Shown: positions 1 through 26,409 of the stretch, one piece after another
Layout of the letters: every line of letters starts with the position of its first letter
Numbering within the stretch: position 1 is the stretch's first letter
Made by a program: the position numbers and the translations under genes
The notes under the pieces: generated by a model
Database searches by the model: none
What the model saw: only the letters and a program-made list of their open reading frames with translations
Told to the model about the DNA's origin: nothing
Source: an uncultured Bacillota bacterium
GTDB lineage: Bacteria; Bacillota; Clostridia; Christensenellales; UBA1242
Assembly (NCBI GenBank): GCA_949298925.1
Contig: CASFYE010000052.1
Coordinates: forward strand, 1 to 42,738
Direction of reading: 5' to 3'
DNA: 42,738 nt

Positions 1-11
1 GTCAAGAGCGC

Positions 12-29
12 ATCCCACCGTCTCCGCCA
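12..29 (+). pseudogene. 3' fragment of a tRNA-Ser-like gene (partial duplication)
   Basis: ATCCCACCGTCTCCGCCA resembles the 3' T-stem, acceptor strand, discriminator G and CCA of tRNA-Ser. The preceding bases (GTCAAGAGCGC) are not a GGTTCGA T-loop, so this is not an intact tRNA end. Upstream context lies outside the window. Confidence 0.6.
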
Positions 30-34
30 AAGCC

Positions 35-108
35 GTCGCGGTGTGATTGGAGCCTGTCGGCTCCTGTCAAATAGTCATTTGACCGAACCCACGTTTTGTG
101 GCTACGAC
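35..108. repeat. GC-rich multi-hairpin element next to the tRNA fragment
   Basis: Hairpins GGAGCC-tgtc-GGCTCC (49-64), GTCAAAT-agtc-ATTTGAC (66-83) and CCAC-gtttt-GTGG (89-101), with an imperfect closing stem GTCGCGG/CTACGAC. Confidence 0.6.
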
Positions 109-283
109 CGAACCAAGAGGCGTGCGTGGATAAAAATGTTACAGATGTAAAAATTAGATAAAGTGTAAAAGTTTCTGTTGGTTTTGTTAATTAAATTATT
201 ATTTAAAACATAATATCAATTTGTTTAAGTGTTTGATTTTTTTGTTGGGTGTATGATATAATTAGTTCGTTTAAGGAGTCGCT

Positions 284-16394: not shown

Positions 16395-16508
16395 ATTGCC
16401 TCCGTGGTTATTATATCATGTTTATATGATTAAATCAATAGGTCAACTTTTACATTTTACCAACGATCGGCTAGTTTGTTTTTAACTTACCAAATTTGCT
16501 TATTTAAC

Positions 16509-16557
16509 AAAACGAAGCGAATAGTTTCGTTTTATTCTTTGGTAGCCTCAAGGGGAG
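16509..16557 (-). repeat. Direct copy of the tRNA-Glu 3' end plus its terminator
   Basis: Near-identical to 16789-16837 (280 bp offset); includes CTCCCCTTGAGGCTACCA on the minus strand. Confidence 0.9.
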
Positions 16558-16819
16558 CCACACCCTAAAAAAGCAAGCTTTTTTAGGGGACCTATCTCAC
16601 CACAAGGGGTTCGACTCCCAAACATCTGAAAAACTTCGCCACCGAAAAACTAAAAAGTTTTTCTTGCCACGCTTTAGAAAAAAAGCTAAAAACAGTCATT
16701 TGACTTAACCAAACTCCTGTTTTATAGCATTTTTTCCGCTTGCCTCGCTCGTTTTTGAGATGTTTGTTAAAATTTTCAATTATTAAAAAAAACGAAGCCA
16801 ATCGCTTCGTTTTATTCTT

Positions 16820-16894
16820 TGGTAGCCTCAAGGGGAGTCGAACCCCTCATTCCGCCGTGAAGGGGCGGCGTCTTAGCCGATTGACCATGAGGCC
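16820..16894 (-). tRNA. tRNA-Glu (TTC)
   Basis: GGCCTCATGGTCAATCGGCTAAGACGCCGCC-CCTTCAC-GGCGGAATGAGGGGTTCGACTCCCCTTGAGGCTACCA; full cloverleaf with encoded CCA; C at position 33. Confidence 0.93.
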
Positions 16895-16958
16895 GTGACA
16901 GTCGATTATGATTATAATCGATAACAAAGGGTTAAGTCAAGTGTTTTGACAAAAAAAA

Positions 16959-17708
16959 TCATTTTTTTATTTTACTACTCGATTGTTTGCGTGCAAAAGT
17001 GATGACAAAAACGTTGTTTGCAAATTTTTTAAGCTCCTTTGCACATTCATTTGCGGTTGCACCAGTCGTCATTACATCATCTACAAGTAAAATGCTTTTG
17101 TTTAAAATTTTAGTTTTGTCCGTTACTTTAAATGCGTGATGCAAGTTTTTTTGTCTGTCAAAAAATCCTAGTTCTTTTTGATGCTTTGTTTCTTTAACCT
17201 TTTCAAAGCATTTAGTTTCAACCGGCAAATTACAAAGTTTTGATAGTTCTTCCGCAAGCATTTGTGCTTGATTAAATTTTCGTTTGGAAAATGACTTTTT
17301 TGACAATGGCATAGGTATGATTATGTCAAATTCAATATCAGTCTGTTTTAGCCGATCATTCATTAATTGCGCCATATGAGGAGCAAGATATTTTGCATTG
17401 CTGTCTTTAAATTTTAGTATTACTTTTTTTACCATGTCTATGTAAGGATAAACTGAAATTGCTCTGTCAAAAGCTTTTCGATGAGATTTGCAATTGTCAC
17501 AAACTATGCTGTCGCCTTGTAGTATATCATCACAAAGCTTACAACGTTTGTCGTTTTCAAAATGTAGTTTTTCTTCGCATTCATCACAATAACAAATTTT
17601 AGGGTCGGGAATATCTCGACCACAAAATATGCATTTTAAATTCGAAGGAAAAAATATTTCTAAAATCCAATTCCAAATTTTTTTTAAAGTTTTCATATTG
17701 TTTATCAA
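16959..17708 (-). CDS. ComF family protein (zinc ribbon + phosphoribosyltransferase domain)
   Basis: FP..CIFCG, CKLC, CDNC, RKFNQA, ILLVDDVMTTGAT. Confidence 0.92.
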   Translation of the reverse strand: MINNMKTLKKIWNWILEIFFPSNLKCIFCGRDIPDPKICYCDECEEKLHFENDKRCKLCDDILQGDSIVCDNCKSHRKAFDRAISVYPYIDMVKKVILKFKDSNAKYLAPHMAQLMNDRLKQTDIEFDIIIPMPLSKKSFSKRKFNQAQMLAEELSKLCNLPVETKCFEKVKETKHQKELGFFDRQKNLHHAFKVTDKTKILNKSILLVDDVMTTGATANECAKELKKFANNVFVITFARKQSSSKIKK

Positions 17709-17808
17709 AATGTGCTCATTAAAACGTTTTATTTTAAATCACCCCAAAGCATTGCGAAGCAATTGCTTTGGGGCTTTAAAAATCATTTAACCAAAATTTA
17801 ATTTTAGA

Positions 17809-18033
17809 TTAAATATTTAACAGTCTCATAATTCTTCCTGAGACGATCATGAGTATAAGGTCAATCAGCCAAACGATGTTGAAACCAAAGAATACTCTAA
17901 GTAATCCTGCCACTGGTTTTCCTTCCTTAAATCTTGTTAAAATGCCAAGTATCCAAGCGGTAACAGGTATTATTGCAAGGATAATGCTGACAATTCGTCC
18001 AAGTCCGAAGTAATCTTTTCCTTTTTTAGCCAT
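17809..18033 (-). CDS. Small membrane protein
   Basis: 74 aa with hydrophobic helices; AAAGGAGG RBS. Confidence 0.75.
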   Translation of the reverse strand: MAKKGKDYFGLGRIVSIILAIIPVTAWILGILTRFKEGKPVAGLLRVFFGFNIVWLIDLILMIVSGRIMRLLNI

Positions 18034-18137
18034 GATTTTTCCTCCTTTCTTTTAAAAGAATACCATTTTTTTATAAAAAAACAAAACGAATTACAAGTAC
18101 ATAGTGAATTTCAATTAGACAAAATTTTAATTACGTA

Positions 18138-18166
18138 TTGACAACTGATCACAAAGGTGCTATAAC
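18138..18166 (+). promoter_or_regulatory. Sigma-A-type promoter resembling the ankyrin gene promoters
   Basis: TTGACA-17 bp-TATAAC; shares GTATTGACAAC and AAAGGTG with the promoter at 11397-11419. Confidence 0.6.
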
Positions 18167-18186
18167 TTTTTTAAGAGGGCAATGAT

Positions 18187-18969
18187 TTGTTATCTTATCC
18201 GCAAGTAAAAAAAATTTTGAAAGATGAAGAAGACAGAGTGTTAAGGTCTAAAATTCTAAGTTTTACAAAGGACAATAGTTCTTTGTTTGCTTTATTGTGT
18301 TCAATAAGGATGTATTTTGATCCAAACAGTTCAAGATTTGAAAGAAAAGGTTTTTTGAAAAACATACAAAACAACAATTTGGTGGAAAGTTTTAATATCT
18401 TGCGACCAGGGTTTTTAAAGAGAATTAATACTTTTTTTCAGAAAGTCGGCAACAGATCCATCAATGCGACAAATAGAGCTTCTCTTGAAATAACGGTTGA
18501 CGGAGTCTCGGGTAAAATAACTCCATTCAACATCGCTGTTGAAAAAGAATACGAGGGGAATAATAATTGTTACTCAAATGTTGTTATGCTTGCCATTCGT
18601 CGCTATGTTGAAGGCATAAAAATAAATGGTATTTGTGGAATTTTACGGTCACCTGAATACTTACGAACCGACACAGAAGATGTTATTCATTGCGTAGTTG
18701 AGAAAGATGACATGATTAACGATATGCTTAGGCATTGTGCTTTTTCAAAAGATCTATATGAAAAATTATTTTGTTTTGAAACACTTACAAATTTTTCTAA
18801 CGAAAAGATTTTTAATCAAATAATGTTTGTGCGTTCTAAGGCTCCAGAATGTATAGGAGGAGAGGGTGTTGCCCCGTACTACTTTTTGGCAAATGATGAT
18901 TTTATGGATAATGTTAAGAAAAGGCTTGATGAAAAAGTTTCTAATGCAGACGAGATAGCAAGACAATAA
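18187..18969 (+). CDS. Hypothetical protein
   Basis: 260 aa ORF with TTG start and upstream promoter; ends DEIARQ. Confidence 0.7.
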   Translation: MLSYPQVKKILKDEEDRVLRSKILSFTKDNSSLFALLCSIRMYFDPNSSRFERKGFLKNIQNNNLVESFNILRPGFLKRINTFFQKVGNRSINATNRASLEITVDGVSGKITPFNIAVEKEYEGNNNCYSNVVMLAIRRYVEGIKINGICGILRSPEYLRTDTEDVIHCVVEKDDMINDMLRHCAFSKDLYEKLFCFETLTNFSNEKIFNQIMFVRSKAPECIGGEGVAPYYFLANDDFMDNVKKRLDEKVSNADEIARQ

Positions 18970-19163
18970 AAATATAATTTTATTGAGCTATGAAAACAAA
19001 AAAATTTGATTATGAAATTTGTTGTGCGGTTTAGAATAATGACGATAAAACTTATGGCGTGTTTGGTAAATGTTTAATTAATATAAACTATGACAGCAAA
19101 AGTATGAAAAAGTGTTGACTTGTTTGAAATTGTGTGTTAACCTAAAAATATAAGGAGGCACAA

Positions 19164-19334
19164 ATGATTAACGAAGTAAAAGCAAACCCAGAAAGCAACA
19201 CTGATGATATGATCATATTTGATGGGATCGTCTTGGATGATCCCGACGATGAAAAAGAATTGTCAAAACAGGACGAAATGAAACTAGAAAGGCTTTTTTA
19301 TAAAATAAAAAAAGAAAAAACATTGACTAGATAA
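19164..19334 (+). CDS. Small acidic hypothetical protein, 56 aa; absent from the ORF track
   Basis: AAGGAGG RBS; MINEVKANPESNTDDMIIFDGIVLDDPDDEKELSKQDEMKLERLFYKIKKEKTLTR*; terminator AAAAGTAGCG-aa-CGCTACTTTT follows. Confidence 0.75.
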   Translation: MINEVKANPESNTDDMIIFDGIVLDDPDDEKELSKQDEMKLERLFYKIKKEKTLTR

Positions 19335-19476
19335 AAGTTTAAAAGTAGCGAACGCTACTTTTTTATTTCATGGACAAAAACCGTAAAAATACTCAAATAT
19401 TAGACAAAATTTTTTGAAATATATGTGCTAAAATATTGTTGTTGTTTTGCTTTAAATTATAGATATTGGAGAGATT

Positions 19477-19938
19477 ATGATAAAAAGTGAAAGTTTAAAT
19501 GAAAAATTTTGTTATAATGCTGTTTTTGACAAAATATCGCAAGTGACAAAGGCTTATTTAGGAATTTTTCAAGAGTTTGATGCGTCAAATAAGGAAGTTG
19601 TTTTTACTGGCGCAATGTTTCGTCAATTATACAATTCAAACAAAACAGGCCAAGGCAACGGTGGGCACAATAATGCACATGATGATTTTAAAAATAGGAT
19701 GATAAAAGCCTTAACGAATGTCTGTGATGAAAATGAAATCAATGAATTGAGCGTGGAGAACAATATGTTTTCAGATAAATATAGAAGGCTATACGGCAGG
19801 CTGTCAAATCATTTTGCATTAAGCAGTTCGCAAAGTCCTAGTAGCGCCTATGAAATAAGCGTGCATAATGACAAAATTTGGGAAAAATGGTTTTCATTGT
19901 TAAAAACATTATGTGAAGACAAAGTGATATCAAGATAA
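19477..19938 (+). CDS. Hypothetical protein
   Basis: 153 aa, GGAG RBS, terminator-like TGCC-gtt-GGCA(T)n after the stop; ends DKVISR. Confidence 0.72.
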   Translation: MIKSESLNEKFCYNAVFDKISQVTKAYLGIFQEFDASNKEVVFTGAMFRQLYNSNKTGQGNGGHNNAHDDFKNRMIKALTNVCDENEINELSVENNMFSDKYRRLYGRLSNHFALSSSQSPSSAYEISVHNDKIWEKWFSLLKTLCEDKVISR

Positions 19939-20054
19939 TTAAAGTGCCGTTGGCATTTTTTTAATTTTATAAATTGTTATACAATTAACCATATCAATTT
20001 TGTTTGAATAAAAGCATAAATATGCTATCATATTTTTGTAATAAAGGAGAAGAT

Positions 20055-21089
20055 ATGGGGATTTTAAAAAATATTGAATGGAAAGATAACAGCACCAATC
20101 TTATTATTTGGAAGTATCCAATAAACAAAGACCATGTCAACAGAGGTTCTGCATTGACTGTTAGAGAGGGGCAAGTCGCTATCTTTGTTGACAAAGGGAG
20201 ACTCGCAGATGTGTTTTTGCCAGGTTTCTATAAATTGGACACCAACAATTTGCCTGTGCTTACAAAATTGCTGTCATGGAAATATGGCTTTGAAACACCT
20301 TTTAAGTCGGATATTTATTTTGTAAACACAAAACAATTTACCAATCAAAAATGGGGGACTGTTAATCCTATTATTGTGAGAGATAAGGATTATGGCGCAG
20401 TTAGAATTAGAGGCTTTGGCAATTATTCTTTCAAAGTCGATGATGCTTACATTTTTATGAAAAATTTGAGTGGGACAAACGCAAGTTTTAACACCGATCA
20501 AATTAGCGATTATTTAAGAAGTATGGTGGTCAGTGGCATTTCTGATGCAATTGGCGAAAGTAAAATACCTGTTTTAGATATGGCTGGGAATTTGCAAGAG
20601 CTTTCAAAAATTGTTGAGCAGAAGATGGGGTTAAATTTTAAAAATATTGGCTTAAAGTTGACGAGTTTTGTTTTTGAAAACTTTTCACTGCCTGAGGAAC
20701 TTGAAAAAGCGCTTGATAAAAATACTACTTTGGGAATGCTTAGAGGCAACATGGATGTTTACACTCAAATGGAAACATTGGCCGTTATGAAGGAAGCTGC
20801 AAAAAATCCTGGATCTGCTGGAGGAACTTTGGGAGCAGGAATGGGCTTAGGTATGGGCATGGGCATGGGCAATATTTTTGCGAGCAACATGCAACAAATG
20901 GCTGAAAATCAATCTAAAAAATCCAAACAACCTTCAAAAACATGCCCACATTGTGATGCCGAACTTCATGGCAATCCTAAATTTTGTCCAGAGTGTGGCA
21001 AAAGTTTAAAAGCGGTTTGCCCAGATTGCGGGACAGAAGTAAGGGCGAACGCAAAGTTTTGCCCAGAATGTGGGAGAAAACTTAAATGA
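20055..21089 (+). CDS. SPFH/band-7-like protein with C-terminal double zinc ribbon (YdjI-like)
   Basis: GSALTVREGQVAIFV, TNNLPVLTKL, KWGT.NP, GAGMGLGMG, and KFCPECG repeated twice; RBS before ATG 20055. Confidence 0.9.
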   Translation: MGILKNIEWKDNSTNLIIWKYPINKDHVNRGSALTVREGQVAIFVDKGRLADVFLPGFYKLDTNNLPVLTKLLSWKYGFETPFKSDIYFVNTKQFTNQKWGTVNPIIVRDKDYGAVRIRGFGNYSFKVDDAYIFMKNLSGTNASFNTDQISDYLRSMVVSGISDAIGESKIPVLDMAGNLQELSKIVEQKMGLNFKNIGLKLTSFVFENFSLPEELEKALDKNTTLGMLRGNMDVYTQMETLAVMKEAAKNPGSAGGTLGAGMGLGMGMGMGNIFASNMQQMAENQSKKSKQPSKTCPHCDAELHGNPKFCPECGKSLKAVCPDCGTEVRANAKFCPECGRKLK

Positions 21090-22174
21090 CAAATAAATCC
21101 ACAGATGAATTATTGTATGGTGATGAAAAACTTGACACTTCTGTATGCAAATGTCCTAATTGTGGTGGAGAAAGTGAATTTTCTGCAGTTGACCAGAAAA
21201 TGAAGTGCCTGTATTGTGGGAGTTTGTTTGATGTCGAAAGCCTTGGGACGATAGAGGAGCGGGATTTGGATGAGCTTTTGTCCAAGGGTCAAGTTTGGAA
21301 GAACGCATATGTTTATCAATGCAAAAGCTGTGGAGCAAAAGAAGTCGTTGAAAATCAAGAATTTTCGATGGAGTGCCCATTTTGTGGCACAAGTAATATA
21401 ATAAAGATAAATCAGTTGCCAGGCTTAAAACCTCAGGGTGTAGCGCCTTTCAAAATAGGGAAAGAAGAATCGGTAAAAATAGCATTAAATTGGGCGAGAA
21501 AAAAGGTTTTTGCGCCAAATTCATTTAAAAAAGGTGCCAAAGCCCAAAATATTCACGGAGTGTATAATCCGATATTCACATTTGATGCTAAAACCAAAAA
21601 CGAATATTACGGTCGTTTAGGAAAAAATGTTGTTTCATATAGATTTGTTAACGGCAGACGTACTGCCCAAACGACCACAAGGTATTTTGACATCAGAGGA
21701 CAAAAAAATGTGAATTTTGATGACATTTTGGTGCAAGCTTCTACCAATCTGCCTGAAAAATACGTAAAAAAAATTGAGCCTTTTCCTACAAATAATGCTC
21801 CTAAATATAAGTCGGAATATTTAAGAGGTTATGTTGCTTCTACATATGATAAAGATGGGAAAGAATGTTGGGAAGAATGTAAAACGCAAATTAAAAAGCG
21901 TGTTGAAGCTGTGATCTTAAAAAGTTATTCATATGATGTAAAACAGTTTTTAAACGTAAAGACGAAATTTGAAAATAAAAAATATAAGTTCGTTTTAGTG
22001 CCCATTTATGTTGGTCATTACAAATACAAAAACAAATTATACAATTTCTATATTAATGGTGATAATGGAAAGATTGCAGGTAAAACTCCAATTTCAGCAT
22101 GGAAAGTGCTGTTTGTGGTTTTTGGGGTATTATTGTTTATAGGTGCTATTGCGACAATAATTGCTCTTTCATGA
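21086..22174 (+). CDS. Zinc-ribbon protein with C-terminal TM (YdjG-like partner of the SPFH protein)
   Basis: CPNCGG, CLYCG, CKSCGA, CPFCG; INGDNGKIAGKTP followed by a TM helix; overlaps the upstream stop. Confidence 0.85.
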   Translation: MTNKSTDELLYGDEKLDTSVCKCPNCGGESEFSAVDQKMKCLYCGSLFDVESLGTIEERDLDELLSKGQVWKNAYVYQCKSCGAKEVVENQEFSMECPFCGTSNIIKINQLPGLKPQGVAPFKIGKEESVKIALNWARKKVFAPNSFKKGAKAQNIHGVYNPIFTFDAKTKNEYYGRLGKNVVSYRFVNGRRTAQTTTRYFDIRGQKNVNFDDILVQASTNLPEKYVKKIEPFPTNNAPKYKSEYLRGYVASTYDKDGKECWEECKTQIKKRVEAVILKSYSYDVKQFLNVKTKFENKKYKFVLVPIYVGHYKYKNKLYNFYINGDNGKIAGKTPISAWKVLFVVFGVLLFIGAIATIIALS

Positions 22175-22326
22175 CGTTATGGTAAATTATGTTAAAGAAA
22201 CAAATATGATTATGGCAAATTAATGTTGACATTTTAATGTTAATCTTTGTAAAGTGTCATTTGTAGTTAATAATTTGTTTTATATTGTTTGTAAATATGA
22301 TATCATATCATTAAGGAGGATTTGAA

Positions 22327-22767
22327 ATGGGAAGAAATTTTGTTTACAAAGTTTTAGGTGCTTTGATAATTGTTTTGGCTTCTGTCTTGTGGATATTGTC
22401 ACTCACTGTTACAGATGCCTTTGGATTTTTTAACTTGGCATGGGCAGGTGTTCTGCTGTGTGGTGGTATAGGTTTATTATTTTTAATAAACGGTGTTTTG
22501 CAAAAAAACATAACAACAGTTAAAAAACTAAAAATTTGGTTCGGTGCTGGGTTATTGATTTGTGCGGTTTTGTGTTTGGTCTCTGCGATCGCTTTGCCTC
22601 ACAGTTTGGTTTTACCTATTATTTCAATAGTTGTTGCTTTCGCGTTTTTGATCACCATTTTAGCGACCGGTGGCAAAAAATGGGATGAAGGCGACAATCA
22701 TAAGTTAGGATACAAAAACTACCACGAAAGAAAAGCTGAAGAAGAAAAAAAAGAAGAAAGCGAATAA
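22327..22767 (+). CDS. Hypothetical membrane protein (about 4 TM)
   Basis: AAGGAGG RBS, hydrophobic helices, charged tail. Confidence 0.8.
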   Translation: MGRNFVYKVLGALIIVLASVLWILSLTVTDAFGFFNLAWAGVLLCGGIGLLFLINGVLQKNITTVKKLKIWFGAGLLICAVLCLVSAIALPHSLVLPIISIVVAFAFLITILATGGKKWDEGDNHKLGYKNYHERKAEEEKKEESE

Positions 22768-22770
22768 AGC

Positions 22771-23274
22771 ATGAAAAGTAAAAATGAAGTAAGTGTTGAA
22801 AAAGACTTAAAAACAAGATTAATTGTTTCGTTTGTTGTGACGATTATGCTTGTTTTTGGAATTCCTTTAATAATAGTTGGAGCAACCCAATCTATTTGGG
22901 CCATTTTAGGAATAGGCATAGCTTTTACGGTTATAGGTTTTTATGGTGCGCCAATATCATGGACGACTTATGCAAATTTTAAAACATTAAAGAGAATTGT
23001 GGACTGTGTTAATGAGGAAAATTTATTGACAACTGAAGAGATATCAAAACAGCTTCAAATAGATGAGAAGTCGGTTAAACAACAATTAACCCTTGCTATT
23101 AAAAAAAAGTATATTACCGGATTTTTGTTTGATGGATCAACATTGACAGCAAACAACAAAGAAACGTCAAAAAAACGAGTTTTGGAAAACAAATGCCCAA
23201 ATTGTGGCGCGGTTATGGATTTTAATGAAACGACGTGGCATTGCTCATATTGTAATTCCAAATTTGAAAAATAG
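22771..23274 (+). CDS. Membrane protein with winged-helix-like segment and C-terminal zinc ribbon
   Basis: 2 TM, EEISKQLQIDEKSV, CPNCGA...CSYC. Confidence 0.8.
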   Translation: MKSKNEVSVEKDLKTRLIVSFVVTIMLVFGIPLIIVGATQSIWAILGIGIAFTVIGFYGAPISWTTYANFKTLKRIVDCVNEENLLTTEEISKQLQIDEKSVKQQLTLAIKKKYITGFLFDGSTLTANNKETSKKRVLENKCPNCGAVMDFNETTWHCSYCNSKFEK

Positions 23275-23319
23275 TATTGACATTTGATTAATTTTTTGTT
23301 ACCATTAAGCGAGGAGGGA

Positions 23320-24192
23320 ATGATGAAAAAATTTTTGATTGCAATTTTAATAATAATCTTAATTGCGGGGGCTGGCGTTGGTGGATTCTTTATTGGTAAA
23401 AATGTAAAAGGAGACGACTCAGTCTCAGCGGTTACAAAAGAAAATGTAATTGAAGTTTTGGACAATTTTAGTTACAGTGCAGGCTGGATTGAAAAAAATG
23501 AGACTGTCGCAAAGGCTACATCAAACACACAAGAATATACTGCTGAAGAAGTAGATTACAAGGGTCAAGAAGATTTTATTAAAACTATGATATTTGTTAC
23601 AAAATATGCTTTATTAAATGAAGAAGTTAAAGAGAAAGAATTTTATTTTTCAAGTGCGACATATGAAGTTAATGGCCTAAGATATTCTGGCAATATGGGA
23701 TTATACTATGAATTTGGAGAAAATTCTGCGTTTATAAACGTGTATGATTTTGACAACAAAGCACATGTCGTTTTAATCGTTGACATCCAACCTATTCAAG
23801 ATCAAAAGTATGTTTTAAACATTTTGCAAGACGCAGATATGCGTGGACAAGATGGTTTTGCTTTACAACAATTATACATGGATCAATATGCAAATCAAAT
23901 TTATCAATACAGTAGATTAAACGTTCAAACGACAAGGAAAAATTTAAGTGGAATTACAATTGAAGATGTTGACAATATAGAGCTCTATGGTTGTGACATA
24001 ACAACACACGAGCAAATTGATATTTCAAAAGAACAAATTGCTACCGAGCAAACTTATACTTTTGAGGCATTGATGAATGTTTATAAAGAGCAGGCTTCAA
24101 GATATTCAGGCGTAAACTTTATAAATAGAGATTACAAACAAATAGATGCTTTAGAAAAGGCATATTCAAATATTGGCTATCAAGTTGTATAA
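23320..24192 (+). CDS. Secreted or membrane-anchored hypothetical protein
   Basis: MMKKFLIAILIIILIAGAGVGGFF signal/anchor; GAGGAGG RBS before ATG 23320. Confidence 0.8.
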   Translation: MMKKFLIAILIIILIAGAGVGGFFIGKNVKGDDSVSAVTKENVIEVLDNFSYSAGWIEKNETVAKATSNTQEYTAEEVDYKGQEDFIKTMIFVTKYALLNEEVKEKEFYFSSATYEVNGLRYSGNMGLYYEFGENSAFINVYDFDNKAHVVLIVDIQPIQDQKYVLNILQDADMRGQDGFALQQLYMDQYANQIYQYSRLNVQTTRKNLSGITIEDVDNIELYGCDITTHEQIDISKEQIATEQTYTFEALMNVYKEQASRYSGVNFINRDYKQIDALEKAYSNIGYQVV

Positions 24193-24238
24193 CTTTACGA
24201 ACAAAACAAGTTGTTTGGCAACTAGTAACACAAACAAC

Positions 24239-24267
24239 AAAGCACCATTCTAAAATGGTGCTTTTTA
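24239..24267 (+). terminator. Intrinsic terminator
   Basis: AAAGCACCATT ctaa AATGGTGCTTTTT. Confidence 0.8.
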
Positions 24268-24542
24268 TTTGTTTAAAAAAATAATAAATACGATTAAGTA
24301 TAGTTATTAAATAAAATTTTGTATTAAAAACAAATGATATTAAAACAAGTTAATAATTATAATATTTAAGTGAAACCATATAATGAATTTAAAATGTTTT
24401 CAATATTGCATTTATTAAGATTATACTTTCTTTATTTTATAATTTTTAAATAAAATTTTAAGTATTTATATTTCATTAAAAAACCTTTGTATTATTAATA
24501 AGATAATGTCATAAATCTCGAAAATTTAAAAAATAAAATTTA

Positions 24543-25879
24543 TTAAACTGGTTCATTATAGCCAAATAAAATTGGCTTTTTGTTTAAAATTTTAAAATGA
24601 TCTTTTTTTAAAAAATTCTTATTTATCCATGCTTGGAAAACACACTTTTCAAAAAAATTGTTGTTCATTACATAATAACCATTGGTTCTTTGATCTTCTC
24701 CAGCGCTATCTTCTACTTTCCACCTTATTACTTTTCCTTCTTCAATTTGACAGCCTTTAAATGTCATCCAATGTTTTAGAGTTATATCAAAACTTTCTAA
24801 TGCATGGGTTTTATCCATATCTTTAATACCAAAAAGTTTTTCATAGCTAAAAAGTCTTGTGTCAAGAACAGTGCTTTCCTGATTTCTATATTTTTTATTT
24901 TCACAAGCAAAGCAAACGGGAATATTGCTTTTTAATTGTAAAACAATTAGTTCAACAAAATCTTTTTGAGGAAGATTTATAAACTCGACAAAACTTTTCC
25001 CTTCAATATTTCCTGAATAAGCTTTTCTAAATTTTGAATAGTATGGGAAGGTTTTCATAGGAACATTGCCAATCAAAATAAAGTCGTCTAGGTTTATAGA
25101 AGAATATTTATTATAAAATTCTTGTGGAGTAATTTGTTTAATGACCTTTGACTTACCATACTGGTCTTTATAGGAGTAGTTAAAAACAATAGGCGGAGTT
25201 CCTAAGACTTTACATAATATTGTATAATTTTCATTAAGCATTTTGTTTTTTAACATATATAAATCTTTTTTGTTTTTTTAGCTTGAATTAATAAAAACAA
25301 ATCCCTTTTTACCTTTTGCGAATATAGCTTAATAAATTCTGATGAGTTTGATGAGTTATAAGTTTCTGGCATTATTTCTTCTGGGACAATACCATATTTT
25401 TTAATAAGTTCCCTGGCATACTCTATCCTTCCAGATTCTCGAACAGGATCTTGCAAAAATTCCGCTAAAAATCTATTTTTAGACTTATTAACCAATCCGT
25501 TTTTGTAAAAATTGTAATTACTGTCAATAATTACTTGGTATGCATGGTTTGATTTTTCTAACTTATCATAAAAAGTTAAATAGTTAGAGGATATTTGAAA
25601 ATGTAAGGGATCACAATTCATGTTATGAGCTATATCATTTTTAATCAAATTTAAGCATGAAAATAGCCAGCAACGAAGAGATGATTTTTGAGAATAAATT
25701 TTGCAGTTTTCTAATTCCAAATTAAATTCAAATTTATTTCCTTTTATAATTCTATTATTTAATGAAAAGTCCTCTAATGAAACTTTTTTTAATTTATCGG
25801 CTATATTAAAATTTTGGTTTTTTAAATAGTTTTCTTGAAATTCTTTCAAATTTTGTAATGAAATTGATGCATTTTTCAT
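24543..25879 (-). pseudogene. pepC: Aminopeptidase C / bleomycin hydrolase (C1B) gene split by a -1 frameshift into ORFs 25250-25879 and 24543-25256
   Basis: N-half SQKSSLRCWLFSCLN, YLTFYDKLEKSN, KYGIVP..MPET; C-half LGTPP..F, KHWM, WKVEDSAG, GYYVM. Frames join at AAAAAAACAAAAAAG. Confidence 0.8.
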
Positions 25880-25956
25880 AAAAAATTATTCCTTACATGG
25901 TATTCAAACATCTTGCTATTTAGTTTTTTTGGCTTAATCTACTTTTTTATTATAAT

Positions 25957-26031
25957 TGGTGCTCCCGTCAGGATTCGAACCCGAACTAATGGTTCCGAAG
26001 ACCATTGTGCTATCCATTACACCACGAGAGC
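25957..26031 (-). tRNA. tRNA-Arg (TCG)
   Basis: GCTCTCGTGGTGTAATGGATAGCACAATGGT-CTTCGGA-ACCATTAGTTCGGGTTCGAATCCTGACGGGAGCACCA; cloverleaf with A20 and encoded CCA. Confidence 0.95.
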
Positions 26032-26191
26032 ATATAAAATTTGAATTAACGATGAGATTAATTTTTAGGGAGCGAGGAACCATTAGTGGGGTCCCCAAAA
26101 AAAGATGTTTTTTTTGGGATAGCGCAGACTTTGTGCTTGAGTTCTCTGATTTGCGATAGCAAATCGAGTTGTAAGCACAAATAGTCGAGCA

Positions 26192-26235
26192 GGTTCCGAA
26201 GACCATTGTGCTATCCATGTTCGCTACGAGAGCAT
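26192..26235 (-). repeat. Direct partial copy of the tRNA-Arg 5' half
   Basis: 26192-26218 is identical to 25991-26017; 26226-26235 is identical to 26024-26033. Confidence 0.9.
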
Positions 26236-26409
26236 GGAGTCGTGCGTCATCAATAACCAAGTGAAATTATATAACAAAATTAAAATTATTTCAACTGTTT
26301 TTATCATTCATATCCAGTTGTTTAATATTAAAACATTTTTTTTAAAACTTATAGAAATGCTTTTATAATCATGGTTTTTGTGTTAAAATATTAAAAAATG
26401 GGGGATATA

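Follow-up and report, generated by a model that had tools for sequence, protein, structure and literature searches.

The tRNA-Glu(UUC) and tRNA-Arg(UCG) genes of an uncultured Bacillota bacterium (Christensenellales; UBA1242) both hold protein-less inserts of 150-280 bases, and both inserts appear to belong to a widespread family of miniature, gene-less mobile cassettes; our literature searches found no description of such miniature tRNA-gene cassettes. The window analysed here is a stretch of 42,738 nt (contig CASFYE010000052.1, assembly GCA_949298925.1) from a metagenome-assembled genome, labelled G000, of 834,993 bases with 53 contigs and 36 tRNA genes. On balance we favour, with a probability somewhat above even, the reading that both loci are gene-less miniature integrative cassettes of ~100-300 bp which target the stem-loop regions of tRNA genes.

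Fold-back inserts at two tRNA genes

A preliminary description of this DNA had placed an inverted and a direct tRNA fragment beside each of the two genes, and repeat analysis bore out its coordinates (Table 1) as well as the overlap of the two fragments in tRNA numbering, which is 48-62 against 50-75 for tRNA-Glu and 36-47 against 1-41 for tRNA-Arg. The fold-back arrangement at the two loci is far beyond chance. At tRNA-Glu the direct repeat takes in the final 18 nt of the tRNA together with the terminator; the displaced piece contains an exact 18-nt copy at 16540-16557 and a terminator at 16509-16533, and the inverted T-arm copy at 16605-16619 has its tRNA sense on the opposite strand. At tRNA-Arg the direct copy comprises two exact stretches, 26192-26218 corresponding to 25991-26017 (27/27) and 26226-26235 corresponding to 26024-26033 (10/10), and the D-arm of the displaced 5' half has diverged.

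Table 1. Features of the two tRNA loci in the window.
Feature	Position	Strand	Basis
Displaced tRNA-Glu 3' end with own terminator	16500..16565	-	D1 vs 16780-16845, 66 nt, 88%; blastn-short
GGTCCCC hairpin module	16563..16592	-	12-bp stem, 2-nt loop; arms 16563-16574 / 16577-16588 (I7)
Inverted copy, tRNA-Glu positions 48-62 (T-arm)	16605..16619	+	I3, 15 nt, 100% complementary vs 16833-16847
148-bp MITE-like secondary insert	16619..16766	.	16-nt terminal inverted repeats; nested in the Glu cassette spacer
Terminator hairpin behind intact tRNA-Glu	16789..16813	-	Terminator scan; inverted repeat I6; within 66-nt direct repeat
Intact tRNA-Glu(UUC)	16820..16894	-	ARAGORN; Rfam tRNA match on L001
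Intact tRNA-Arg(UCG)	25957..26031	-	ARAGORN; Rfam
Spacer, inverted fragment to intact tRNA-Arg	26032..26075	-	Promoter scan: no promoter-like site called
Inverted copy, tRNA-Arg positions 36-47	26076..26087	+	I5, 12 nt, 100% vs 25985-25996
GGGGTCCCC hairpin module	26088..26119	+	10-bp A/T-tract stem; arms 26094-26103 / 26109-26118 (I8)
Second long stem-loop	26120..26191	+	Fold of 26070-26215, z = -6.85
Displaced tRNA-Arg 5' half, positions 1-41	26192..26235	-	D1 27/27, D3 10/10; blastn-short
Promoter-like site before displaced Arg 5' half	26266..26294	-	TTGAAA-17-TATAAT, 11/12

The inserts lack coding capacity. The sole reading frame in those of the window, of 108 aa (25934-26260), runs across the tRNA-Arg gene and is taken to be spurious. 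The only good promoter at tRNA-Arg lies upstream of the whole unit, so that the unit is probably co-transcribed; the promoter-like site at 26266-26294 probably now drives all of it, including the intact tRNA-Arg. The arms of the MITE-like insert at tRNA-Glu (I4; 16619-16634 and 16751-16766) are 94% complementary, and this insert (query 204-333) has five copies in genome G010 at 75-80% identity. A variant in run X3 connects position 16618 to the terminator via 22 other letters. A ComFC-like competence gene adjoins tRNA-Glu.

The Glu insert is also present in contigs of four other public runs from two studies. One contig bridges 16528-16835, and one has a junction of tandem or circle type that leads from 16837 back to 16562; neither an empty site nor a clear excision junction was seen in the contigs, as distinct from the reads, of these four runs. 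An artefact of metagenome assembly might be suspected in a genome of 53 contigs, one break of which falls inside an array of such units, where contig C13 ends at the window start. However, the same structure was assembled in many genomes as well as in the contigs of the four runs; the Glu insert is not an assembly artefact, and the probability of this explanation is negligible.

Recurrence across the genome

The inverted plus direct arrangement recurs at other tRNA loci of this genome. An inverted exact copy of at least 12 nt lies within 600 nt of nine of the 36 tRNA genes, compared with 0/36 for reversed tRNAs, 1/36 for complement-only sequences and 19/1184 for the flanks of other tRNAs; since the copies were found via exact matching, their exactness is partly an ascertainment effect. 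Direct partial copies likewise occur at 9/36 genes, and at six loci the inverted piece and the direct one share tRNA positions. Acceptor/D, anticodon and T-arm regions all hold cassettes, which can lie to either side of the tRNA gene, and the inserts duplicate 17-73 nt of target.

Several loci carry arrays. Tandem units are near-identical, and at C49, C27 and L003 the distal unit of the array is the truncated one. On contig C27 the inverted arm of a type-2 cassette, the second scaffold type discussed below, fits the G variant of the displaced copy rather than the A variant of the working gene.

Filled and empty sites in related genomes

Relatives show both filled and empty alleles. G011 and G006 differ by a clean 145-bp insert, to either side of which they are collinear; the native 18-nt tRNA end comes directly after it, and the G011 insert carries a terminator differing from the native flank. 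The insertion is polymorphic, and the gene is restored after it. Among the tRNA-Glu(UUC) loci of 12 genomes, seven hold the hairpin type, two a second scaffold type and three are empty. In all nine filled loci the inverted arm matches the local T-loop variant, and in G084, which has two tRNA-Glu genes with very similar cassettes (judged by eye; identity not computed), the inverted arms differ at the single T-loop position that distinguishes the two genes. The inverted copy tracks the sequence of its target. At locus L072 the gene is followed by a type-2 cassette, a T-loop-to-CCA copy, a hairpin cassette, a D-loop-to-CCA copy and another type-2 cassette, which is exactly the order predicted by three successive insertions. 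The second scaffold type is found 50-110 nt behind nine different tRNAs, in 9 of 10 records from low-GC Clostridia, and at least four scaffold types share a common layout. Recurrence and the two allele states support the earlier proposal that a short non-autonomous element, or a process, acts on tRNA genes.

In this genus tRNA genes do serve large integrase-bearing elements as sites: a 46.6-kb element, whose tyrosine integrase has 428 aa, splits tRNA-Arg(UCG) in G002, G063 and G018, and tyrosine integrases cutting tRNA loops occur. The inserts could thus be decayed scars, CIME-like remnants left by internal deletion of islands or prophages rather than mobile units, and direct tRNA repeats are the classical att scar, as one account describes (PMC9897764). 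That integrase scars consist of direct repeats only, as the preliminary description assumed, holds for such classical cases, but the nested copy order seen here fits serial site-specific integration. Scars are also unlikely on grounds of spacing. A scan for the tRNA-Glu 3' end found two same-strand copies 101-280 bp apart in 18 of the 121 genus genomes, and pairs at 0.3-9 kb in none of the 121. One scaffold stands behind nine different tRNAs, tandem units are near-identical, and the ends of the 46.6-kb element have neither an inverted target copy nor a cassette scaffold; convergence of independent deletions on one minimal layout is not expected.

Breakpoints at tRNA stem-loops also invite an explanation without any dedicated recombinase, namely template switching or fold-back synthesis at tRNA hairpins, with spread between strains via DNA uptake and homologous recombination in which the conserved tRNA and the repeated piece of it would be the homology arms. 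This would agree with our failure to find an element-linked enzyme (see below), with the competence gene beside tRNA-Glu, and with the native-looking terminator that the duplicated segment includes at several loci. The terminators behind the working gene and the displaced copy are nearly identical at L003, L008 and in window repeat D1, and local duplication would explain this equally well. We nevertheless hold this process to be rather unlikely, as conserved scaffolds are placed alike relative to the gene at many different tRNAs and across many genomes, the terminator of the G011 insert is unlike the native flank, and the interleaved cassette types at L072 are consistent with successive insertions at defined points. 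Moreover, 18 nt is very short for an arm used in homologous recombination.

A separable hairpin module

The hairpin motif given in the preliminary description occurs twice in the window and not once in 100 shuffles, and these two are its only matches genome-wide. Every copy of the GGTCCCC hairpin found in this genome adjoins a tRNA. Across the genus the hairpin is not specific to tRNAs: of 39 copies in four relatives, only eight have an intact tRNA within 400 nt, and in G042 and G056 together 28 of 29 copies are away from tRNAs. The hairpin is shared by both loci of the window, as first described, but it is not obligatory, and fold-back junctions without it exist at tRNA-Thr(UGU), upstream of tRNA-Leu(UAA) and at tRNA-Arg(ACG).

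Among 43 pattern matches, 42 pair over at least 9 bp and 39 have z <= -2, with 23 distinct stem arms. On these figures the GGTCCCC hairpin is a selected structure with co-varying stems. The second stem-loop accompanies the hairpin in many module copies, among them those of L008, L022, L072 and G042 (a likeness by eye, not aligned). The hairpin, often together with this second stem-loop, is a separable module of dispersed small repeats in the genus, and it nests either in the fold-back loop or in the loop of a displaced tRNA piece.

Co-varying stems, folds stabler than shuffles in three of five cases (z -3.9 to -6.9) and the probable co-transcription of the Arg unit would all suit a structured RNA that serves the host in leader or trailer processing, stability or regulation, with the antisense piece pairing with the tRNA precursor. 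Such a role is nonetheless improbable: the module has opposite orientations relative to tRNA transcription at Glu and Arg, a terminator lies between tRNA-Glu and its unit, presence varies among close relatives, and no Rfam family matches. With Rfam 15, 16 loci and the Arg locus gave tRNA matches and sub-threshold noise only, and 13 further loci gave a T-box match only; a known RNA family was rejected on this basis.

Search for a moving enzyme

No recombinase tied to the cassettes was found among the tyrosine integrases and large serine recombinases examined. G000 encodes one Xer-like tyrosine recombinase (contig C2) and one large serine recombinase (contig C45), and the surroundings of the latter hold no tRNA pieces. 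Nine of 30 serine recombinase loci lie beside a tRNA, and partial or inverted tRNA copies are missing from all of them, as is the hairpin motif, a finding that led us to discard a large-serine-recombinase element. Five recombinase loci of up to 20 kb each, two of them shortened by contig ends, contained no tRNA copy of at least 11 nt, and viral contigs gave no match to the hairpin-to-tRNA junction pattern. Nor did the 121 genomes contain, at tRNA-Glu, an autonomous relative with genes between the tRNA copies.

The ends of IS608 are laid out as guide, hairpin and cleavage site. The cassettes resemble this topology: their inverted target copy precedes the hairpin on its 5' side, in simple copies a junction follows 5-6 nt to the 3' side of the hairpin, and their size would suit single-stranded circles; the IS200/IS605 and REP/RAYT systems also combine a subterminal hairpin with a short neighbour complementary to the cleavage or target site. 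An HUH enzyme (IS200/IS605 TnpA or RAYT) might accordingly perform hairpin-guided single-strand transposition, using the 5' sequence as a DNA guide. This origin, suggested in the preliminary description, has become very improbable, as the Y1 transposase (PF01797) and TnpB (PF07282) are absent from all six genomes tested, and no HUH/RAYT enzyme or reverse transcriptase was found. Unlike those systems, the cassettes have the hairpin at one end only and a long target duplication, and one of 17-73 nt is not produced by peel-and-paste transposition. Fold-backs without the hairpin, and the hairpin copies remote from tRNAs in G042 and G056, likewise argue against it. The absence of PF01797 and the length of the duplication also led us to reject a derivative of IS200/IS605 (PATE) or REP/RAYT. 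An IS110/IS1111 bridge-RNA system was rejected as well; the DEDD enzyme PF01548 is absent from G000 and present in 1/121 genus genomes.

A model for integration

We propose that each integrative cassette would carry its own tRNA part from one side of the crossover, the 3' end plus terminator for Glu and the 5' half for Arg. As the cassette brings this part along, insertion would leave a working gene, with the native piece displaced outward; the final 18 nt of the intact tRNA-Glu (16820-16837) and the 5' half of the intact tRNA-Arg would then be copies supplied by the inserts. At its outer end the cassette would hold 10-19 nt of the target as an exact inverted copy that spans the crossover, and the displaced piece would thereby be capped by a fold-back. 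New cassettes would re-insert into the working gene and build tandem or nested arrays with the older copies further out. We infer that the cassettes are moved by a recombinase acting in trans and that the inverted copy is part of the recombination site, where it may act as a second half-site or as one arm of a folded single-stranded site mimicking the target. Two further points weigh against integrative cassettes: double-stranded circles of 100-150 bp are hard to form, and it is unlikely that one protein reads so many different targets.

It is possible, though doubtful, that the inverted copy serves as a nucleic-acid guide or mimic, and that the cassette moves as a folded single strand inserted by a recombinase in trans. 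Together with the start of the tRNA part, the inverted copy would then substitute for the double-stranded tRNA site; the structured module would branch off at the crossover, and a host or helper recombinase would perform the insertion. Any tRNA loop could be targeted after a change in the two tRNA-derived arms.

If the inserts are self-contained cassettes, they rank with the smallest known site-specific mobile units and would colonise essential genes harmlessly, and a change of target would seem to need two short tRNA-derived arms and not a protein. Should the guide or mimic reading be true, they would amount to programmable integration cassettes of the attC kind, protein-less and directed at essential RNA genes. 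These observations bear on how recombination sites gain new specificities, on whether a simple natural design for targeted insertion exists, and on the littering of tRNA loci in reduced genomes, such as those of gut Clostridia, with tRNA fragments that confuse annotation. The arrays break assemblies, as at the start of the window, and create false partial tRNA calls.

Comparison with known systems

Williams, in 2002, reportedly distinguished sublocation classes of integration within tRNA genes. Like the islands and prophages that tyrosine integrases place in tRNA genes, and like their integrase-less derivatives (CIMEs, cis-mobilisable elements), the cassettes insert in a tRNA gene, supply a restoring copy and leave the displaced fragment as a direct repeat, and they share with them the tandem accretion at one gene and the use of anticodon-arm and T-arm sites. 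Unlike these, they are gene-less, measure 100-300 bp, bear an exact inverted target copy at the outer end, and are found also near the acceptor/D region and on the 5' side; one cassette scaffold serves many tRNAs, and no cognate autonomous element was found. An integrase-bearing tRNA island was rejected, there being no integrase gene inside inserts of 101-280 bp, as was a CIME: in a search limited to tRNA-Glu in the 121 genomes and the 46.6-kb tRNA-Arg element, whose ends differ, no cognate integrative element was found. The cassettes are not MITEs either, having a long gene-restoring repeat and no terminal inverted repeats; only the insert nested at 16619-16766 has such repeats, of 16 nt.

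Integron attC and the attP(+) of CTX-type phages are folded single-stranded sites, and CTX phages exploit Xer recombinases. As in these sites, a variable structured loop lies between inverted and direct site copies, which could pair into a stem mimicking a double-stranded target, and the small size would be convenient for a single strand; integration of this kind would be irreversible and array-building. The differences are that the targets are tRNA genes and not attI or dif, that no integron integrase is evident, and that the cassette closing stems are short (5-9 bp predicted). These stems have z values of -3.9 for the Ser unit, -4.2 for type 2 and -2.2 for Glu, where the prediction is not clear.

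The 178-bp rtT repeats of E. coli likewise follow a tRNA gene, tyrT, as non-coding tandem units, every one of which terminates with a copy of the tRNA 3' end. To our knowledge, rtT has no inverted target copy, nested hairpin module or multi-tRNA distribution, a comparison of layout in which the sequences were not compared.

Another known system, tRNA-dependent lysogeny (PMC10865867), is one that we liken to the 46.6-kb element and not to the mini-cassettes. The 46.6-kb element agrees with it in a short common core in the anticodon loop, in a host tRNA that is not rebuilt, and in carrying its own tRNA of the same isotype. The mini-cassettes differ from that system in that the gene is rebuilt and in having neither an integrase nor a complete tRNA.

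Proposed tRNA-targeted cassettes in the window and across the genome

All of the elements that the preliminary description had listed at tRNA-Glu(UUC) and tRNA-Arg(UCG) were recovered by a repeat finder. In our best-supported interpretation these are gene-less miniature integrative cassettes: each would insert at a tRNA stem-loop and restore the gene, further cassettes would insert repeatedly and so accumulate, and an enzyme supplied in trans would move them.

We surveyed 600 nt on each side of all 36 tRNA genes in the genome that holds the window (G000; 834,993 bases in 53 contigs, 34.7% G+C), with the remaining tRNA genes masked. An inverted exact copy of at least 12 nt is present at 9/36 genes and a direct partial copy of at least 12 nt at 9/36; reversed tRNA sequences gave 0/36, complement-only sequences 1/36, and tRNAs compared with the flanks of other tRNAs 19/1184. 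The genes affected in this genome include Gln, Met, Phe, Thr(UGU), Thr(GGU), Leu(CAA, CAG, UAA), Ser(CGA, GGA), Arg(ACG, UCG) and Glu. The inverted-plus-direct arrangement is thus not confined to the two loci first described, as it recurs with overlapping coordinates at Ser, Leu and Thr genes. Since the two pieces overlap in tRNA coordinates, the broken end of the displaced piece carries an inverted copy of itself as a cap; a loop of 0 nt at Thr, 20 nt at Arg-ACG and at most about 110 nt separates the two.

Features of the proposed tRNA cassettes, neighbouring genes and the integrase element (window coordinates unless stated)
Feature	Location	Second location	Strand	Detail
tRNA-Glu(UUC)	16820-16894		-	ARAGORN
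tRNA-Arg(UCG)	25957-26031		-	ARAGORN
Glu inverted T-arm copy, 15 nt	16605-16619	16833-16847		100% complementary, repeat finder
Glu hairpin arms	16563-16574	16577-16588		repeat finder
Glu direct repeat, 66 nt	16500-16565	16780-16845		88%; tRNA last 18 nt + terminator
MITE-like insert, 148 bp	16619-16766			16-nt terminal inverted repeats
Arg inverted piece, 12 nt	26076-26087			repeat finder
Arg hairpin arms	26094-26103	26109-26118		repeat finder
Arg 5'-half copy	26192-26235			exact stretches 27/27 and 10/10
Ser(CGA) array interior	1-131			tRNA 3'-end copy 12-29; inverted T-arm piece 84-94
ComFC-like gene	16959-17708		-	upstream of tRNA-Glu
Peptidase C1-like gene	24543-25879		-	two consecutive frames, 209 and 237 aa
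TraG/VirD4-like gene	26398-28392		+	adjoins tRNA-Arg locus
Zeta-toxin-family kinase gene	33610-34410		-	adjoins tRNA-Leu(UAG)
Glu, tRNA positions	inverted 48-62	direct 50-75
Ser(GGA), tRNA positions	inverted 62-78	direct 70-88
Ser(CGA), tRNA positions	inverted 64-74	direct 73-93
Leu(CAG), tRNA positions	inverted 11-20	direct 16-88
Thr(UGU), tRNA positions	inverted 26-41	direct 26-32
Arg(UCG), tRNA positions	inverted 36-47	direct 1-41
46.6-kb element	G002:C1:35647-82300	G063:C1:122568-169214		G018: two junctions on separate contigs C13, C2

Arrays and a second scaffold

At one genus locus (L072) the gene is followed by a type-2 unit (a second scaffold type with the same insert layout), a T-loop-to-CCA copy, a hairpin unit, a D-loop-to-CCA copy and another type-2 unit. 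Exactly this order is expected if three insertions entered the working gene one after another, each with its own downstream tRNA part. On contig C27 of G000, the type-2 inverted arm agrees with the displaced copy and differs from the working gene, as would be expected if a later insertion had moved an older one outward. Truncation affects the distal unit in the C49, C27 and L003 arrays. A tandem tRNA-Ser(CGA) cassette array also reaches into the left edge of the window; contig C13 ends in the identical sequence, and the assembly therefore broke inside the repeat.

The type-2 search of public genomes returned many chance matches in GC-rich genomes, and only low-GC Clostridia records were used; in 9/10 such records among the matches listed, the scaffold lies 50-110 nt behind a tRNA, nine different tRNAs being represented. 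The scaffold is therefore constant, and its two tRNA-derived arms vary with the target.

Empty and filled alleles in relatives

The preliminary description had proposed a comparison of empty and filled alleles, and both states were found among related genomes. The 12 genus loci of tRNA-Glu(UUC) comprise seven of the hairpin type, two of the second scaffold type and three that are empty. Genomes G011 (filled) and G006 (empty) are collinear apart from one 145-bp insert at tRNA-Glu. The insert opens with a second copy of the final 18 nt of the tRNA and a terminator that differs from the native one; a spacer, the inverted T-arm, a short direct piece of the T-arm and lastly the hairpin come next, and beyond them lie the native 18 nt and native flank. 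At tRNA-Arg(UCG), five of 23 loci have the 5'-side arrangement of the window and ten have no fragment.

We considered whether the fragments are scars of decayed islands; passages of PMC9897764 treat tRNA fragments only as classical direct repeats. Paired copies of the tRNA-Glu end lie 101-280 bp apart in 18/121 genomes, and no pair spaced 0.3-9 kb occurs in the 121. The sole 9.9-kb pair represents two distinct Glu genes whose cassettes look much alike by eye; at the T-loop base that distinguishes the genes, the inverted arms of the cassettes differ too. The local T-loop variant is likewise present in the inverted arm at 9/9 filled Glu loci.

The inverted target copy thus tracks the sequence of its own tRNA, and does so at many different targets. 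A rival that we considered is template switching without any recombinase, with homologous exchange as a second step; the foreign terminator of the G011 insert and the recurrence of conserved scaffolds at many tRNAs speak against it. Within the cassette interpretation, base pairing or a folded target mimic explains the inverted copy more easily than protein recognition does; we do not put this forward as our principal claim, since neither an enzyme nor a circle nor a single-strand intermediate was seen. Full-text literature searching turned up no report of tRNA cassettes that carry an inverted copy of their target, and the supplementary tables of PMC9897764, which list more tRNA fragments, may include similar cases. 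PMC3293823 reports on an archaeal element with a recombinase through which a fragment of a tRNA is scattered.

The hairpin is a separate nested module

The hairpin motif of the preliminary description has two matches in the window, which are the sole ones in G000, and 0/100 shuffles match. With only the G/C clamp of the pattern fixed, the hairpin is found in 29/41 genus genomes. Among 43 matches examined, 42 form at least 9 bp and 39 have z ≤ -2 against shuffled interiors, with 23 different stem arms; the structure is clearly under selection.

Both window copies adjoin a tRNA, but in four relatives an intact tRNA is found 400 nt or less from just 8/39 copies (1/17 in G042, 0/12 in G056, 5/6 in G024 and 2/4 in G051). 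In G042, G056 and G051 the hairpin is a component of other dispersed small repeats, often with a second stem-loop, and the intergenic regions that host them are empty in G000. At four Glu loci (L003, L005, L010, L012) a direct T-arm piece follows the inverted T-arm after 2-4 nt and the hairpin sits in the resulting pseudo-T-loop; in Leu copies it is placed in the D-loop, and some fold-backs have no hairpin. Thus the architecture first described combines a displaced tRNA piece, capped by a fold-back, with a hairpin that is a nested module of its own.

Short TGTCATTCTGAGC...GAAGAATC repeats in G056 (L231-L242), some with the module at their centre and some without, suggest that the module settles within loops of other small palindromes. 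A structured repeat of roughly 200 nt with GGGGRCAACTAGAATTT ends is dispersed in 11 copies in G042 and 13 in G078 (e.g. L217-L221, L225, L226); it contains the module, and no transposase was found. We rejected it as the parent transposon of the module: it is dispersed in 17/121 genomes, with no kb-scale inverted pairs.

Folding, transcription and independent samples

As single strands, the inverted and direct arms are predicted to form closing stems (z -3.9 for the Ser unit and -4.2 for the type-2 unit); the prediction is a very stable two-hairpin structure for the Arg unit (z -6.85) and a weaker fold for the Glu unit (z -2.2). Stable folds speak for a host RNA function, a rival that we considered; Rfam holds no family matching the units. 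The single strong promoter-like site at Arg is upstream of the displaced 5' half, so that transcription of the working gene probably passes through the unit. At Glu, gene and unit have a terminator between them. The module has opposite orientations relative to tRNA transcription at Glu and Arg, which argues for a DNA-level logic.

Assembly artefact was a further rival, and one to which the break inside the Ser(CGA) array is relevant. The Glu insert is also present in contigs from four other runs of two studies; no empty Glu site joint occurs in the assembled contigs (as distinct from reads) of those runs. One contig joins 16837 back to 16562 at a depth of 2.7, as a tandem copy or circle would. 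A 148-bp MITE-like insert is nested inside the Glu cassette of the window; it has five copies in G010 and is missing from a strain variant in sequencing run X3. A 233-nt skip in X3 was not trusted as a real variant, its shorter side being just 21 letters.

Search for a moving enzyme

HUH transposition, with the RAYT or IS200/IS605 TnpA origin suggested in the preliminary description, was rejected: family searches for HUH, RAYT and TnpB enzymes were negative in G000 and five hairpin-rich relatives. In G000 the searches found no IS110 enzyme, TnpB, Y1 HUH transposase or reverse transcriptase, and TnpB and Y1 HUH enzymes are absent from the five relatives. Reverse transcriptase was accordingly rejected, as was IS110, which is present in 1/121 genus genomes. 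GIY-YIG matches occur in 118/121 genomes and nearly all are UvrC-sized; of 15 loci with a small GIY-YIG gene, two adjoin a tRNA-Arg(CCU), and the one of these that was read (L208) has neither fragment nor hairpin. A GIY-YIG homing nuclease was likewise rejected. The Glu junction pattern has 0 matches in viral contigs.

G000 encodes a single tyrosine recombinase, which is Xer-like, and a single large serine recombinase. Genes for the latter class occur in 43/61 genus genomes, with up to eight per ~1-Mb genome, and at 9/30 loci they run convergently with a tRNA gene and end a short way behind it and a conserved hairpin that resembles a terminator (loci L258, L266, L267, L269, L270, L274, L277 and L279). 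They are frequent beside tRNAs, yet partial or inverted tRNA copies are absent near these loci, and we rejected them as cassette movers. Five of the large serine recombinase loci have no tRNA copies within up to 20 kb, two of the five stretches being shortened by contig ends. These recombinases may constitute a separate class of tRNA-end elements.

A genuine 46.6-kb integrase element interrupts tRNA-Arg(UCG) of G002 and G063 at the anticodon loop, as does an element in G018 whose two junctions fall on separate contigs (loci showing the element: L034, L037, L039, L047-L049); the genus thus does contain recombinases that cut within tRNA loops. It encodes a 428-aa tyrosine integrase, leaves the host gene unrebuilt and brings its own, different tRNA-Arg(UCG), matching the pattern of tRNA-dependent lysogeny as outlined in PMC10865867. 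Cassette features are absent from its ends.

Genes near the tRNAs of the window

A ComFC-like gene near tRNA-Glu, whose phosphoribosyltransferase and double zinc ribbon domains both score under the Pfam cut-off, hints at natural DNA uptake. The split peptidase C1-like gene is probably a frameshift or pseudogene. A lone type IV secretion coupling protein is encoded beside tRNA-Arg amid housekeeping genes, and a zeta-toxin-family kinase beside tRNA-Leu(UAG).
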